Positions 1 to 24,000 of a stretch of DNA of 64,000 nucleotides are shown piece by piece. The first letter of the stretch is position 1. Each line of letters starts with the position of its first letter. The position numbers are program-made. The stretch lies in NCBI GenBank assembly GCA_964461715.1, contig CAYWVR010000005.1:3717-67716 (forward strand). Reading direction: 5' to 3'. This DNA is from an uncultured Anaerolineales bacterium (GTDB taxonomy: Bacteria > Planctomycetota > Phycisphaerae > FEN-1346).

Positions 1-3000
1 CCAGTGGCCTGGGAGGCCGAGATCGGTCCCGGCTTCGCCGCTGTGGCCGTCGCCGGCGGCAAGGTCTACGCGATGGGCCGCGGCGAGAGCGACGACGTCC
101 TCTATTGCCTGAGCGAGGCCGACGGCACGGTCCTCTGGAAGCAGTCTTACCCCACGAAGGAGGGCAGCTACCCTGGCCCACGGGCCACGCCCACCGTCGA
201 CGGCGACCGCGTCTACACCTCCAGCCGCTACGCCGACCTCCACTGCTTTGACGCCGCAAGCGGCCAGATCAAGTGGTCCGTCGACGCCCGGGAGGCGTTC
301 GGCGTGAAGAAGGAGTCTCAGAACTGGGGCCTGGCGTCCTCGCCGCTCATCGTCGGGGACCTGGTCGTGTACGATTTCGGCATGATCCTGGCCCTCGACA
401 AGATGACCGGGAAGCTGAAGTGGAAGGTCGGGGATGATAAGCCCGGCTTCTCCTCCGCCCAGAACTTCCAGTTGGGCGGCAAGACCTATGTCACGGCCTT
501 TAGCGCCGCGAGCCTCGTGATCGCCGACGTGGCCACGGGGACGGAGATCGCAACGTTCCCATGGGAGACGAAGTACGACTGCAACACCGCCACACCCCTC
601 GTCGAGGGCGACACCCTGTTCATCTCCTCGGGCTACGGCCGGGGCTGCGCGGCCCTGAAGTTCGACGGAACGAGCCTCACGAAGCTCTGGGAGAACGACC
701 GGCTCAAGAGTCACTGCAACAATGCCGTGCTCTACCAGGGCCATCTCTACGGCTTCGACGGCCAGCAGGGCGGTCGCGGCGACCTCGTGTGCATGGAACT
801 GGCCACCGGCGAGATCCGTTGGTCCCAGCGGGCCGGCCGCATCGGGGCCCTCATGATCGCCGGCGGCACGATCATCGCCCAACTGGACCGCGGAGAGCTC
901 ATCACCGCCAAGGCCACGCCCGCCGGCTACACGGAGATCGCGCGGGCCGAGGTCCTTGACGGCCAGTGCTGGACGATGCCCGTCCTGGCGAACGGGCGGA
1001 TCTACGTCCGCAACAATAAGAACGACGCCGTCCTGAAGGCCCTGGACGTGCGGGGGGCCGAATGACCCAGCCGATGCGCATCCTCTATTGCCACTGCGCG
1101 TTTTTCGAGACGACGCCCGCCGACGTACGCGGGGCCGTCCTGGAGGGGATGGCGGCGGCAGGCCTCGAGTTCACGCCCGTGCGGGACCTGTGCGAGCTGG
1201 CCGCCAGGCGGGACCCGATCCTGGCGGAGATGGCCGCCGGGGAGGGCTCGCGGACGATCGTCGCCTGCCGCCCCCGGACTGTCCGGTGGCTCTTCGAGGC
1301 GGCCGGGGCGACGCTGGAGCCGTCCGCGGTCCGGTTTGTCGACCTTCGCGAATCGACCGCGGAGGAGGCCCTCGCGGTCCTCACCGAGGGAGCGGCCTGC
1401 GAGGAGGGCGGGTGCGGATGCGGGGCCAAGATCGTGCGGGCGGTCCTCGAGAATCTCGACGCGAACGCCTGGCGGCCCTGGTTCCCGGTCATCGACTATG
1501 ACCGGTGCGTCGGATGCGGCCAGTGCATGGATTTCTGCCTTTTCGGCGTCTACGAGCGGGATGACGAGGGCCGGGTCGTCGCGGCCCATCCCGAGAAGTG
1601 CAAGACGAACTGCCCCGCCTGCGCCCGCGTCTGCCCGGAGGCGGCCATCATCTTCCCGAAGTACCTCGACGGCCCCATCAGCGGCCTGCCCGTCACGGAG
1701 GCCGACACCGGCGACCCGGTGCGGGTGGACCTCGCCGGCCTGGCGAAAGGCGACGTCTACGAGAAGCTCCGGAAGCGCGACGGGGGCTCCGGAGGCCGGT
1801 TCTCGGGGACCTACGACGGTGCGCAGGCGGAAGCGGAGCGGGCCGAGTGCTCCTGCGTCTCGCGGATGATGGAGCGCCTCGGTGTGACGCCGGAGGTCCT
1901 CGCCGCCAGTGCCGCCGACGCCCGCGAGGCCCTCGCGGCTCCGTCGGAGACCCCGGGGGGCGGCTGTGCGTGCGACGAGGACGCGGGCTGCGACTGCGAC
2001 GGCACGGACGAGGAGCGGGCCGCCGGCGCGTGCGGGCCCCGGGGGTGCGACTGCGGCGGAACGGGCGAGGAGACGTAGGGCGGATGCTTCTTACGCTGGC
2101 CAAGCGGATGCTGTTCGAGACCGACCGGCGGCTCCTCTGGAAGTTCGCCTGGAACTTCGGTGTCCAGAGTCTCCGGGCCCACGCCCGGTTCAAGCGCGAT
2201 CTGCGCCGCGGGCGGACGTACCCGGCCTTCCTCTTCATCTCCATCACCAATGCCTGCAACCTGCGGTGCCAGGGGTGCTGGGTCTCGGTCGAGGCGCCGC
2301 AGACCTTCCTGGCCCCCGAGACGTTCGAACGAATTCTGCACGAGAGTCGCCGCCGCGGGAACCGCTTCTTCGGCATCCTGGGCGGGGAACCGCTCCTTCA
2401 TCCCGACCTCTGGACCGTCCTGAAGCGGTTCCCGGACTGCTATTTCCAGCTTTTCACGAACGGCACGCTCATCACCGACGAGACGGCCGAGACGATGCGG
2501 CGGCTCGGGAACGTGACCCCCTTGGTGAGCATCGAGGGCCTCGAAGAGGTCAGCGACGAGCGCCGCGGCGGCAAGGAGGTCTTCCGCCAGACGCTGGAAG
2601 GCCTGGAGCGATGTCGCCGGGCGGGGCTGGTCCTCGGTGTCGCCACGAGTATCTGCCGCTCGAACATCGACGACCTCGTCTCCGAGCGCTTCGTGCGGCA
2701 GGTTGTGGATCACGGGGCCCACTACCTGTGGTACTATATCTATCGTCCGGCGGGGCGGGACCCCCGGCCGGAGCTGGCCCTGAGCTCGGAGCAGGTGCTT
2801 CGCCTCCGGCGCTTCATCGTCGAGATGCGGGGGCGGGCCCCCTTGGCCATCATCGACGCCTACTGGGACGAGGCGGGGCGGGCCCTGTGTCCGGCGGCCT
2901 CCGGCATTGCGTGCCACATCAATCCCTGGAGCGACATCGAGCCGTGTCCGCCGGTCCAGTTCGCCGCCGAGAGTGTTCATACCAACGGCGACCTGTACCG

Positions 3001-21000: not shown

Positions 21001-24000
21001 TGGGGCAAGCCCACCCTCGTCAACAATGCCGAGACCTTCGCCACAATCCCATGGGTCTTCCGGAACGGGGCGGCGGCCTTCGCCGGCCTCGGCACCGAGC
21101 GGAGCAAGGGCTCGAAGGTCTTCGCCCTGGCCGGGAAGATTGAGCGGGGCGGCCTGATCGAGGTCCCCATGGGCATCACCATCGGCCAGATCGTCGAGGA
21201 GATCGGCGGCGGGATTCCCGACGGCCATGCCTTCAAGGCCGTCCAAGTGGGCGGGCCGAGCGGCGGGTGCATCCCCGCAAGCCTCGCCGACACGCCTATT
21301 GATTACGAGGCCCTCAAGGAGCTCGGGGCCATGATGGGCTCGGGCGGCATGGTCGTCCTCGACGACACCGACTGCATGGTCGAGATCGCCCGCTACTTCC
21401 TCGAATTCACCCAGGACGAGTCCTGCGGCAAGTGCACCTTCTGCCGCGTCGGCACACGACGCATGCTCGAGGTGCTGACGGGTCTCTGCGAGGGGCGCGG
21501 CAAGAAGGGCGACATCGAGGAACTCGAGCACTTGGCCCGCGTCATCTCGGCCGGGAGCCTGTGTGGGCTCGGCAAGACCGCCCCCAACCCGGTCCTGACG
21601 ACGCTCCGCTACTTCCGCGACGAGTACGAGGCCCACATCCAGGGCCGCTGCCCCGCCGCCATGTGCAAGCCGTTGATCCACTTCACCATCACCGACGACT
21701 GCATCGGCTGCACGCGGTGCGCCCAGCGATGCCCCGCCGACGCCATCGAGCCTCGGCCCTATGAGCTGCACGAGATCGACGACGAGAAGTGCGTCCGCTG
21801 CTACACGTGCCGGAACGTGTGCCCGGTGGACGCCGTCCACGTGGAGTAGTCCCGCCCGCATGCCCACGCTCACCATCGACGGCCGGGAGATCGAAGTCGA
21901 CGAGGGCGCCACCCTTCTGGATGCCGCCCGCCGGCTCGGCCTCGTCATTCCGACGCTCTGTCACCGCGACGGCCACCCGCCGCTGACGTCCTGCATGGTG
22001 TGCCTGGTGAAGGCCCGGAACCCCGACCGGATGCTCCCGGCGTGCACCGCCCGGGCCGAGGACGGCATGGTCGTCGAAAGCGAGACGGTCGCGGTGCGGG
22101 ACGCGCGGCGGACGGCGCTGGAACTGCTCCTCGGGGACCACCTGGGCGATTGCGAGGCCCCCTGCCAGGCGATCTGCCCGGCGGGGCTGGCCATCCCGCG
22201 CATGACGCGCCGGCTCCGCGACGGGGCGTGGGACCAGGCCGCGGCCATCGTTCGGACGGACCTGGTGCTCCCCGCGACGCTGGGGCGCATCTGCCCGGCC
22301 CCGTGCGAACGGGGGTGCCGGCGCGGGTCGAAGGATGCCGCCGTCTCCATCCGGGCCCTCCACCGCGCGGCCGCCGACCGGGACGCCGGCGTTTACGTGC
22401 CGCCCGCCGAGGCCGAGAGCGGCCGCCGCGTCGCCGTGGTCGGGGCGGGGCCCGCGGGGCTGGCTGCGGCGTACCATCTTCTGATGCGCGGCCATGGGGT
22501 CATGCTCATCGATGCCCACGAGGAGGCGGGCGGCAAGCTGCGGACCGACATTGAGGAGGACCTGCTCCCGCGCGACGTGCTCGACGCCGAGATCGATGTC
22601 CTGGCGAAGCTCGGGGCCGAGCTCCGCCTCGGCGAGACGGTCGAGACGCTCGGGGACCTGCGCGGCGAGTTCGACGCCGTCGTCGTGGCCACCGGCGAGG
22701 GCGGCCCGGACTTCGGCCTCGAGACCACCAAATCCGGCCTCCAGGTGGACCGCGCGACCGGTGCGACGAGCGCCGAGGGCATCTTCGCCGCGGGCGGGGC
22801 CGTCCGGAAGAGCCGCATGGCCGTCCGCAGCGTTGGTGAGGGCAAGCGGGCCGCGGCGAGCGTCGACCAGTTCCTCTCCGGCGATGCCGTCGAAGGGCCG
22901 ACCTCGCGCCTTTCCGTCCACATCGGCCAGGTCAGCGACGAGGAGATGGCCGTTTTCATGAACGAGGGGGCGAACGTCCCGCGCGTCGAGCCGTCGGGCG
23001 GCGAGGCGGCGGGCCTCTCGCCCGAGGAGGCGACCCGTGAGGCTGGGCGGTGCCTCCACTGCGATTGCCGCAAGGCCGAGTCTTGTCGCCTCCGCGACTG
23101 GGGCGACGCCTGCGGGGCCAAGCCGACCCGCTACAAGCACGACGAGCGTCGCGTGTTCCGGCAGAACGTGGGAGGCGAGATCGTCTACGAGCCGGGCAAG
23201 TGCATTGCATGCGGCATTTGCATCCAGATCGCGGAGGAAGCCCGCGAACGGCTCGGCCTGGCGTTCATCGGGCGGGGCTTCGACGTCCGCGTGGGCGTGC
23301 CCTTCGGCGAATCGATCGCCGAGGGCCTTCGCGAGACCGGAGGCGCGTGTGTGGCGGCATGTCCGACCGGGGCCCTGGCCCGGATCGACCAGGACGAGTG
23401 AAGATCGCCCACGCCTCCGGCCGAACCATAGGACGAACCGCGCGGCCCGGCCGCGCCCCGTGATGGGGGCTGCATTGACGACGACGCCCGCGAAGCGCAG
23501 CCGGGCCCGGACGTGGTTCTTCCGTCTGGCGGCGATGACGCTCGTGCCGGCGGTCCTGCTGGTGGCCGTTGAGGGCGTCCTGCGGGTCGCCGGGTTCGGG
23601 TATCCCACCGACTACTTCGTTCGCGTCAGGGGCCGGGAGGCATGGACGAGCAACATGCACTTCGCGCGGCGGTTCATGCCGCCGGGCCTGGCGCGCGAGC
23701 CCACGCCGGTCGACGTGGCTGAGGAGAAACCGCCGGGAACGGTGCGCGTTGTGGTCCTCGGCGGGTCGGCCGCCCAGGGTACGCCGGAGGAGCGTTTCGC
23801 CTTAGGGCCGATCCTGGAGGTGATGCTGCGGGAAGCCTGTCCGGACCGGCGGATCGAGGTCGTGCCCACGGCGATGGTGGCCGTCAACTCGCACGTGGTG
23901 CTTCCCATCGCCCGGGACGCGATGAAGCTCGATCCGGACGTGCTCGTCGTCTATCTCGGCAACAACGAGGTGGTGGGGCCGTACGGGGCGGGAAGCGTCC

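Follow-up and report, generated by a model that had tools for sequence, protein, structure and literature searches.

Does a long run of apparently unlike genes form one system, several systems that are kept together, or a set of accidental neighbors? The locus that raises this question lies at the start of a stretch of 64,000 nucleotides (the window) from contig CAYWVR010000005.1 of GenBank assembly GCA_964461715.1, an uncultured Anaerolineales bacterium whose GTDB lineage is in the Phycisphaerae of the Planctomycetota. The first ~23 kb of the window (1-23401) hold 18 tightly packed plus-strand genes, which mix beta-propellers with isoprenoid, glycosyltransferase, ABC transporter and electron transfer genes. 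From a comparison of ~170 related loci we conclude that the locus is a recurrent modular supercluster and not one indivisible operon, and we consider it highly probable that it is a selected, recurrent supercluster. As for its role, we read it as an envelope supercluster of three modules, in which a periplasmic reductase module would be coupled to a glycosylated terpenoid of the other two (A and B). We judge the chances of this reading to be about even.

Modules and their arrangement in related loci

We number the genes g1 to g16. Module A is g2-g5, module B is g6-g9, and modules C and D, which we treat together as the redox module C-D of eight genes, run from g10 to g16. Domain calls come from Pfam and NCBIfam profile searches, with the NCBIfam equivalog cut-offs as thresholds.

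g1 (PQQa), 1-1065, +: PQQ_2/BamB-like beta-propeller (PF13360, 2e-31); 5' end cut by the window edge
g2, 1062-2078, +: cytoplasmic electron-transfer protein with 24 Cys
g3, 2084-3277, +: radical SAM enzyme, 397 aa (PF04055, 7e-21, 75.5 bits)
g4, 3300-5036, +: Cys-rich DUF116 domain fused to a trans-isoprenyl diphosphate synthase (IDS)
g5, 4996-5862, +: alpha-alpha toroid protein of the prenyltransferase/terpene-cyclase superfamily; no signal peptide
g6 (PQQb), 5942-7141, +: lipoprotein, eight-bladed PQQ/BamB-like propeller (PF13570, 252 bits; PF13360, 159 bits); lipobox ASAGC
g7, 7158-8447, +: cytoplasmic GT4 glycosyltransferase (PF00534, PF13692, PF13439)
g8, 8465-9169, +: LolD/MacB-type ABC ATPase (PF00005, 2e-35)
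g9, 9166-12504, +: duplicated FtsX-type (type VII ABC) permease of 1112 aa with large extracytoplasmic loops
g10 (PQQc), 12559-14439, +: transmembrane-anchored, divergent PQQ-like propeller (PF13360, 2e-26) with a conserved Cys/His constellation
g11 (NHL), 14436-15455, +: lipoprotein, six-bladed NHL propeller (PF01436, weak); lipobox LVAGC
g11b, 15452-15691, +: 79-aa protein with a twin-arginine motif (RRxF), a hydrophobic stretch and four invariant Cys (C-x6-C-x2-C-x5-C)
g12 (NapG-like), 15688-16269, +: periplasmic polyferredoxin with a Tat signal (motif TRRAMLRRG) and 17 Cys; Fer4 families
g13 (NapH-like), 16266-17717, +: polytopic membrane Fe-S protein, NapH/NosH-like (PF12801 in two stretches)
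g14 (PQQd), 17721-19478, +: transmembrane-anchored PQQ-like propeller (PF13360, 3e-26) with few conserved Cys
g15 (NuoE-NuoF fusion), 19480-21849, +: PF01257, PF01512 and PF10589, with a C-terminal 2x[4Fe-4S]
g16 (GltD-like), 21860-23401, +: short StnC/NfnA-like protein of 513 aa (PF13510, PF14691, PF07992)

The preliminary description of this DNA had reported a co-directional, tightly packed plus-strand block, and both the GC3 frame analysis (GC3 being the G+C content of third codon positions) and the junction measurements bear this out. The window has a G+C content of ~70%, and plus-strand coding is uninterrupted over 1-25715 with a GC3 of 0.83-0.92. Stop and start codons overlap by 4 nt at six junctions (g1/g2, g8/g9, g10/g11, g11/g11b, g11b/g12 and g12/g13), g4 and g5 overlap by 41 nt (identical in two relatives), and seven intergenic gaps measure 1-22 nt. 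Within the cluster, the gaps are widest at 5862/5942 (79 nt) and 12504/12559 (54 nt). No gap of the cluster contains a terminator-like hairpin, and Rfam and tRNA scans of the 64-kb window returned no riboswitch, RNA or tRNA element. Almost all domain calls of the original gene list stood up as well, but that list had overlooked g11b and had placed the start of g12 at 15610. Gene g11b has a GC3 of 0.85 and no Pfam match, and a gene of 77-84 aa is called at the same place in four relatives (L085, L086, L087 and L171). The start of g12 is most likely 15688, not 15610; this gives a protein of 193 aa, and the relatives have 193-194 aa.

For the comparison we used two anchors, the DUF116-IDS protein (80 species-level genome loci) and the NapH-like protein (80 metagenome loci), in both cases the best 80 matches of the anchor, and twelve contigs were examined with pre-computed Pfam annotation. 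Loci were limited to 10-kb flanks and scored by tblastn with the window proteins, and each neighbor count given below is the number of loci with the neighbor over the number with enough flank.

The order of the redox module, PQQc-NHL-(77-84 aa)-NapG-NapH-PQQd-NuoEF-GltD, is near-invariant. The NapH-like gene has NapG as a neighbor in 71/71 loci, NHL in 55/55, PQQd in 55/56, PQQc in 40/44, NuoEF in 37/39 and GltD in 29/32. PQQb and the GT4, ABC and FtsX genes lie upstream of it in ~60-75% of loci (FtsX in 25/34, ABC in 23/32, GT4 in 17/28), and there are two loci, L163 and L167, where the GT4-ABC module is downstream instead. Cassette A is far more widespread, with examples in Verrucomicrobiota, Acidobacteriota, Armatimonadota and Planctomycetota. 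It is mostly solitary, and its usual order is GcvH-CobW-Fer4-rSAM-DUF116IDS-Prenyl-SHC-like (rSAM being radical SAM). A second form starts with PQQa-Fer4 and is the form seen adjoining other modules; PQQa precedes a g2-like Fer4 gene in many loci.

Where the modules do meet, they meet in different ways. A-B-C-D is collinear in the window and in GCA_964526295.1 (L002 and L085), at ~58% protein identity, and an ENA contig (L169) is collinear from PQQa to PQQc, as far as it could be read. C-D and A-B are divergent in GCA_975967245.1 (L171) and in L005, a locus that ends after g5. L123 has the order A-C-D, and L004, from a Verrucomicrobia metagenome-assembled genome (MAG), has B-A-C with C reversed. 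In addition, a PQQa-like gene follows GltD in 15/27 loci, and in the three of these that reach far enough (L128, L139 and L144) a g2-like Fer4 gene comes next. Because the g2-like Fer4 gene is upstream of the IDS gene wherever both are seen, we infer that this B-C-D-PQQa-Fer4 arrangement runs on into the IDS genes. Cassette A therefore adjoins B, C-D or both in no fewer than four gene orders that we observed, or five with the inferred one, in Planctomycetota-type MAGs and one Verrucomicrobia MAG. The supercluster recurs mainly in Planctomycetota.

There are also loci where the modules are apart. The C-D module stands alone in L087, where peptidases lie upstream, GH43 lies downstream and there is no cassette A within 10 kb, and it stands alone in L147. 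Among the 23 species-level loci of cassette A with full flanks, just 1-2 have PQQ, NapH or ABC neighbors, and we saw the cassette without the other modules in L003, L168, L172 and one further contig (P0287). In the window itself, a sigma-70-like match (TGGATA-17-TAGAAT, 9/12) is located at 12532-12560 on the plus strand, in the 54-nt gap just upstream of PQQc and hence at the boundary of the exporter and redox modules. It is the single match in 1-20000, where 0.5 would be expected by chance.

Such separations would be natural if three unrelated operons, one for a terpene, one for a glycosyltransferase and ABC exporter and one of respiratory redox type, simply lay side by side, with their shared direction a matter of genome organization. 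Each module is found alone elsewhere, the 79- and 54-nt gaps fall exactly at module boundaries, and one of these gaps carries the promoter-like match. However, chance neighbors would not be expected to stay adjacent through at least four rearrangements in Planctomycetota-type and Verrucomicrobia MAGs, and translational coupling ties g2 of module A to PQQa, which is itself a paralogue of the propellers in module C. We consider unrelated operons unlikely. The preliminary description had gone the other way and had proposed a single coupled unit, to be refuted if the block split into separately conserved neighborhoods in related genomes. Part of that splitting is what we see, in C-D alone and in the mostly solitary cassette A, so the idea of an indivisible unit has to be dropped, while the association itself survives in several gene orders.

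The redox module and its propellers

In our reading, NADH would be oxidized at the flavin mononucleotide (FMN) of the NuoE-NuoF fusion g15, and the electrons would then pass through g16, a protein with Fe-S clusters and flavin adenine dinucleotide (FAD), to the NapH-like membrane protein g13. From there they would go to the Tat-exported NapG-like polyferredoxin, together with the 79-aa Tat protein with its four Cys, and they would end on the Sec-exported, membrane-tethered propellers, whose Cys/His sites would reduce a substrate outside the cytoplasm. What the sequences show directly is gene content and order, targeting signals, conserved motifs and the synteny of the modules; which way the electrons flow, what accepts them and how a lipid would come in are inferences. 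For the flow of electrons from NADH to the periplasm, we lean slightly in favor.

The g15 protein matches 9bov_B (2e-208), the Stn chain 8oh5_B (2e-204, residues 307-789) and NfnB 9n5u_B (4e-203) in the PDB, and it is probably the NADH/FMN entry module. In g16 we recognize a NuoG-type [2Fe-2S] domain, the GltD 2x[4Fe-4S], an FAD domain, a Cys-rich motif and a ferredoxin domain. Its best PDB matches are 9bov_A (4e-85) and 8oh5_C (1e-76), and the alignment to them is in two pieces, skipping target residues 288-426 and ending at residue 671 of 1178. The ~140-aa NAD(P)H-binding subdomain and the ~500-aa NuoG/FDH-like C-terminal domain are both missing from g16, and one clear dinucleotide-binding GxGxxG motif is present. 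The short form is found throughout the family, with a median stop-to-stop open reading frame (ORF) of 542 aa in 30 loci. Stn itself is an NADH/NADPH/ferredoxin transhydrogenase (PMC7483475). Because g16 has no NAD(P)H subdomain, and the pair has one pyridine-nucleotide site, the g15/g16 module should not be able to act as an NADH/NADPH transhydrogenase.

The same resemblance could mean that the redox module mainly serves the cytoplasm, with NuoEF and g16 passing low-potential electrons to g2, the radical SAM enzyme and DUF116 for terpenoid chemistry, possibly through bifurcation, where the NapH/NapG branch would be the high-potential outlet. It is true that g15 and g16 are closest to the bifurcating Stn/NfnABC enzymes (PMC7483475), that radical SAM enzymes need a low-potential donor, and that the ferredoxin-type g2, with its weakly MvhD/HdrA-adaptor-like fold, is always ahead of the radical SAM and IDS genes. 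However, five exported propellers and a Tat polyferredoxin would then be superfluous, and g16 is without a second pyridine-nucleotide site. The modules also fail to keep company as this idea needs, with C-D in L087 having no cassette A within 10 kb and most A cassettes having no C-D nearby. We think a mainly cytoplasmic role is quite unlikely.

Under our reading of an NADH-to-periplasm route, the membrane step belongs to g13. Its PF12801 match reaches 52 bits (cut-off 22), and the protein has two CX3CP motifs (CGAVCP at 141 and CRFLCP at 237) and two [4Fe-4S] motifs (C-x2-C-x2-C-x3-CP at 265 and 437), all of them invariant in 29 homologues. It misses the NapH/MauN model TIGR02163 (49.4 bits vs 213). 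Known NapGH-like modules deliver electrons to periplasmic reductases, NapA and PceA among them (PMC4585668). Neither the window nor any related locus has a NapA, NosZ or RdhA-like gene. A cytoplasmic NADH-oxidizing flavoprotein is encoded together with the NapGH-like pair, which suggests direct input from NADH and not quinol oxidation.

The preliminary description had counted four propellers, one a lipoprotein, two membrane-anchored and one partial. This holds for the PQQ type, where PF13360 (PQQ_2) was detected in four proteins, but the NHL protein, likewise a lipoprotein, has to be added as a fifth propeller. Two Logan contigs, L001 and L170, show the partial one, PQQa, at full length: a 403-aa protein with a Sec signal peptide, preceded by a non-coding stretch of at least 121 nt. 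The four PQQ-type propellers share just 25-30% identity with each other. Against the PDB, PQQc finds BamB and a quinoprotein alcohol dehydrogenase at just ~1e-6, and the NHL family profile finds NHL propellers at up to 3e-19.

What these divergent propellers do conserve is Cys and His. In 44 homologues of PQQc, five positions are kept in all (H309, C334, C364, H407 and C614), and the others nearly so (C287 in 43, C530 in 42, H331 in 41 and C330 in 39); C330-H331-x2-C334 forms a spaced CHxxC motif. The NHL protein has a vicinal Cys pair, C254-C255 in G-C-C-N-P, which is kept in 62/62 loci, and CCNP is present in 150/150 NHL representatives; its relatives form 804 clusters at 50% identity (E<=1e-30). 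The NHL CCNP and the PQQc Cys/His motifs are likely redox or metal sites.

Since the propellers are in the PQQ-dehydrogenase/BamB superfamily and NuoF chemistry is reversible, the flow could run backward, with the propellers as periplasmic dehydrogenases whose electrons travel through NapG and NapH to NuoEF and reduce NAD+. The scores do not encourage this: the best quinoprotein score is 101 bits where 480 are needed, the window carries no pqq genes, and the radical SAM enzyme is not PqqE (50.8 vs 381). NAD+ reduction from a periplasmic donor would also need an energy input that is not encoded in the cluster. We regard the reverse direction as extremely unlikely. Separately, we rejected a PQQ-biosynthesis reading in which a PqqE-like radical SAM enzyme would feed the propellers; the scores were far under the cut-offs and the 64-kb window has no pqq genes. 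Involvement of cytochrome c was rejected too, as no protein has CxxCH.

Localization signals are in line with the periplasmic direction. All five propellers carry a Sec signal, a lipobox or a transmembrane anchor, and Tat motifs are on the NapG-like and 79-aa proteins. The proteins predicted to be cytoplasmic, with no signal, are g2, g3, g4, g5, the GT4 glycosyltransferase g7, the ABC ATPase g8, g15 and g16. The placement of the propellers and the NapG-like protein fits the earlier suggestion of a periplasmic reductive machine.

The terpenoid cassette and the exporter

Module A, in the cytoplasm, would make a polyprenyl-derived product, with the trans-prenyl synthase, the radical SAM enzyme, two Cys-rich Fe-S proteins and the prenyltransferase/cyclase-fold protein acting together. 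The product would be a terpenoid made by g2-g5, glycosylated by the GT4 enzyme and handled by the MacB-type transporter, and C-D would act on, or together with, this glycosylated terpenoid exposed in the envelope. We favor an envelope substrate tied to the glycosylated terpenoid because A and B repeatedly travel with C-D, and because g2 is translationally coupled to PQQa, a propeller paralogous to those of module C. That the terpenoid glycolipid is itself the substrate seems rather doubtful to us.

The g4 protein has >7800 homologues and matches PF01976 (1e-29) and PF00348 (6e-40, 137.5 bits vs a cut-off of 27). The IDS part looks active because both Asp-rich motifs are intact, the first (FARM) as DDIED at 314 and the second (SARM) as DDLDD at 447. 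Small residues ahead of the first motif suggest a product of C20 or longer. The invariant Cys include C127-x2-C130-x2-C133, and the AlphaFold2 (AF2) model has a pLDDT of 82. In the literature searched, the one relevant text is a single line in PMC5898192 on a fusion of DUF116 to polyprenyl synthetase in Pirellula staleyi.

The g2 protein is modeled as an N-terminal flavodoxin-like domain with 4 invariant Cys followed by a 2x[4Fe-4S] ferredoxin domain. Fold searches with the model gave generic flavodoxin-like and ferredoxin matches and a weak likeness to MvhD (E 0.07-0.08). We rejected the N-terminal domain as a DUF116 paralogue (hhalign probability 1.3%).

For the radical SAM enzyme g3, the CX3CX2C motif is CNLRCQGC (residues 58-65). 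A SPASM domain (PF13186), which had been predicted for it, could not be recovered at E<=0.01. It is distantly SPASM/twitch-like, with SkfB, BlsE and PqqE as the nearest PDB matches and a weak match to GDGT-MAS, and it reaches no NCBIfam equivalog (PqqE 50.8 vs 381; HpnH 44 vs 225). In many relatives the same slot holds a radical SAM enzyme of 514-552 aa (L168:8401-10008, L169:2480-4024 and L171:10932-12590), with the radical SAM core at about residues 225-410 after a 220-aa N-terminal region that has no assignment. The two types do not find each other by tblastn at 1e-6, which indicates that the two radical SAM types in this slot are unrelated or very divergent.

The assignment of PF00432 to g5 turned out to be borderline (26.4 bits vs a cut-off of 26.5), but the family profile does match the prenyltransferase beta and SHC-like chains in the PDB (RabGGTase/FTase beta at 7e-9, SHC-like at 4e-8). 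A candidate Zn-ligand Cys in a DCEYT motif is V or A in 3/7 homologues and is not conserved. The DxDD motif (DADDTA) is in a separate SHC-like gene of the relatives.

One of the solitary A cassettes, in L172 (GCA_964354365.1, 17253-20930), has the order Fer4-rSAM-DUF116IDS-Prenyl-SHC and is followed by three propeller genes of the Tricorn/PD40 type and not the PQQ type. A link of cassette A to exported propellers may be more general.

Module B would combine the GT4 glycosyltransferase with a MacB/Lol-type mechanotransmitting ABC transporter and the lipoprotein propeller PQQb. The ATPase g8 scores 264.7 bits against the LolD model TIGR02211, under the cut-off of 307.75. In the permease g9, PF02687 matches in two stretches, and the homologue in L004 also matches MacB_PCD.

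With LolD as the best NCBIfam match of g8 and BamB as that of g6, module B brings up envelope biogenesis or quality control, in which the propellers and the Lol/MacB-like ABC transporter would sort or assemble lipoproteins or outer membrane components, and the NapGH-like chain would act as DsbD does to keep periplasmic Cys, such as those of the NHL CCNP, reduced. The two lipoproteins of the cluster and the invariant vicinal Cys pair of the NHL protein would suit this role. All of the scores are under the equivalog cut-offs, though, and there are four to five propellers and not one. The cluster has no BamA/D, LolA/B or thioredoxin-fold genes, and the terpenoid link is left unexplained. We find such a role very unlikely.

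Returning to the three-module envelope reading, we have to count several points against it. To the solitary modules and the promoter-like match described above we add that no protein of the cluster has a CxxCH heme motif, and that we could recognize no terminal reductase, no heme and, the NapG-like protein apart, no cofactor-bearing Tat substrate. The propellers are far from the characterized families: for BamB (TIGR03300, cut-off 285) PQQb scores 168.9 bits and the others 38-82, and for the quinoproteins (TIGR03075, cut-off 480) they score 36-101 bits, with no match for g10. Finally, the SHC-like, cyclase-like gene that most relatives have between g5 and PQQb is absent from the window, and no cyclase-like, GcvH-like or CobW-like gene is present elsewhere in the 64 kb.

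The edges of the block and its place among known systems

We place the functional right edge at 23401 because the gene that follows g16, after a gap of 61 nt (23401/23463), is not conserved in relatives.

g17, 23463-25715, +: transmembrane-anchored protein with a weak GDSL-lipase-like N-terminal region and C-terminal tetratricopeptide (TPR) repeats

At this position L086 has MFS and ThuA genes and L087 has GH43, with no TPR gene in either, and g17 is probably not part of the cluster. In L086 (16324-19931), an MFS gene and a ThuA/3-keto-disaccharide-hydrolase gene come directly after the GltD-like gene. Their counterparts in the window are farther right (MFS at 29301-31454; a ThuA fusion at 31545-34469, minus strand). 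Between g16 and these are the TPR gene, a carbamoyltransferase gene (26371-28212, minus strand) and a sigma-70 family gene (28424-29386), a stretch that looks like an insertion relative to L086. The ~655 nt at 25716-26370, between the convergent TPR and carbamoyltransferase genes, have no convincing coding signal and no Rfam match, and a minus-strand ORF that overlaps them (25707-26582) has poor GC3.

On the left, two independent Logan assemblies of the same organism (L001 and L170; SRR7048218 and SRR7048225) both break 121 nt upstream of g1, and there may be a repeat or a drop in coverage immediately to the left of the cluster. The closest relative with full synteny has a sigma-54 activator (GAF, Sigma54_activat and HTH_8; L002:3565-5136, minus strand) and ammonium transporters divergently upstream of PQQa. 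The activator is a possible regulatory clue.

The remaining window is ordinary chromosome, with UvrC, chorismate synthase, SAICAR synthase and an exosortase exopolysaccharide locus. This last locus (39021-52182, plus strand) is of the exosortase/PEP-CTERM type and includes a Wza-like Poly_export protein, exosortase EpsH, a DUF3485 (EpsI-like) protein, a 1480-aa TPR protein, a chain-length/tyrosine-kinase-like ATPase and a protein with a weak VanZ-like match. At 53854-56733 on the minus strand there is an ORF of 959 aa with a strong coding signal (GC3 0.88) and no Pfam match, and around it, at 54-56 kb, the AT skew is unusually high (0.325).

The envelopes of Planctomycetota and their relatives are unusual, and these bacteria carry many large conserved clusters of unassigned role. 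The parts of this one are abundant, with ~800 NHL clusters at 50% identity and thousands of DUF116-IDS homologues. If our reading is true, the cluster would be a new route for cytoplasmic NADH electrons to reach the periplasm without quinones or cytochromes, and it would give a first function to the DUF116-prenyl synthase fusions and to the BamB-like propeller paralogues. It could also point to an unknown terpenoid glycolipid, which would be a possible sediment biomarker. The modular map shows which genes to delete or co-express as sets.

We found no description of this cluster architecture in the searchable literature, in agreement with the earlier statement that it resembles no characterized system. 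The closest known systems each share some of its features.

The NapGH, NosGH and PceA-associated NapGH proteins have the same two CX3CP and two [4Fe-4S] motifs and the same pairing with a Tat-exported polyferredoxin that would pass electrons on to a periplasmic enzyme. Their partners differ: NapA/NapB, NosZ or RdhA there, and here Sec-exported propellers without cofactors plus an additional 79-aa Tat protein with four Cys. In addition, g13 misses the NapH cut-off. With the Stn/NfnABC and Bfu-family bifurcating enzymes (8oh5, 9n5u and 9bov), the NuoE/NuoF parts with their C-terminal 2x[4Fe-4S] align end to end (E ~1e-204), and g16 shares the N-terminal [2Fe-2S], the GltD Fe-S clusters, the FAD domain, the Cys-rich motif and the ferredoxin domain. 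Here, however, NuoE and NuoF are fused, g16 has 513 aa instead of ~960-1180 aa, and both are encoded inside a membrane/periplasmic module and not as a soluble enzyme.

BamB and the PQQ-dependent dehydrogenases share the eight-bladed PQQ-like fold, and one copy here is a lipoprotein of BamB size, but this cluster has four distant paralogues, two of them transmembrane-anchored with long N-terminal extensions. The type VII ABC transporters (MacB, LolCDE and BceAB) resemble g8 and g9 in having a LolD/MacB-like ATPase and an FtsX-domain permease with large extracytoplasmic domains. The permease here is duplicated in one chain of 1112 aa, every equivalog cut-off is missed, and there are no MacA/TolC, LolA/B or BceRS partner genes in the cluster.

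The overall logic is most like that of the clade II nos clusters, which combine a NapGH-like electron module with a Sec-exported periplasmic propeller enzyme, an ABC transporter and lipoproteins, and where the center of the propeller enzyme is built in the periplasm. In contrast, Pfam and NCBIfam searches of all proteins here gave no NosZ (there is no cupredoxin domain, and the propellers match PQQ_2), no NosD and no NosL; in place of NosFY there is an ABC transporter of the FtsX/MacB type, and there are no cytochromes c. The hpn and other class II terpene clusters also have a polyprenyl synthase and a radical SAM enzyme, and relatives of our locus have the SHC-like protein with DADDTA. Unlike hpn clusters, this one has no squalene synthase genes (HpnCDE), its radical SAM enzyme is not HpnH (44 vs 225 bits), its IDS is fused to the Fe-S domain DUF116, and the window has no cyclase-like gene.

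We do not file the locus under any of these systems because the features that define them fail here, namely the terminal reductase, the NADPH site, NosZ, the cognate ABC partners and the squalene synthase or HpnH. As a tentative proposal, possible but on the less probable side, C-D may represent an undescribed class of quinone-independent, NADH-driven transmembrane electron-export complex with cofactor-poor, Cys-based propellers at its end, wedded in many Planctomycetota to a dedicated pathway that makes and exports a terpenoid glycolipid. The whole would then be a periplasmic machine that reduces lipids or other envelope components and has no characterized counterpart. Judged by these comparisons, the parts come from known families and it is their assembly that appears to be new.

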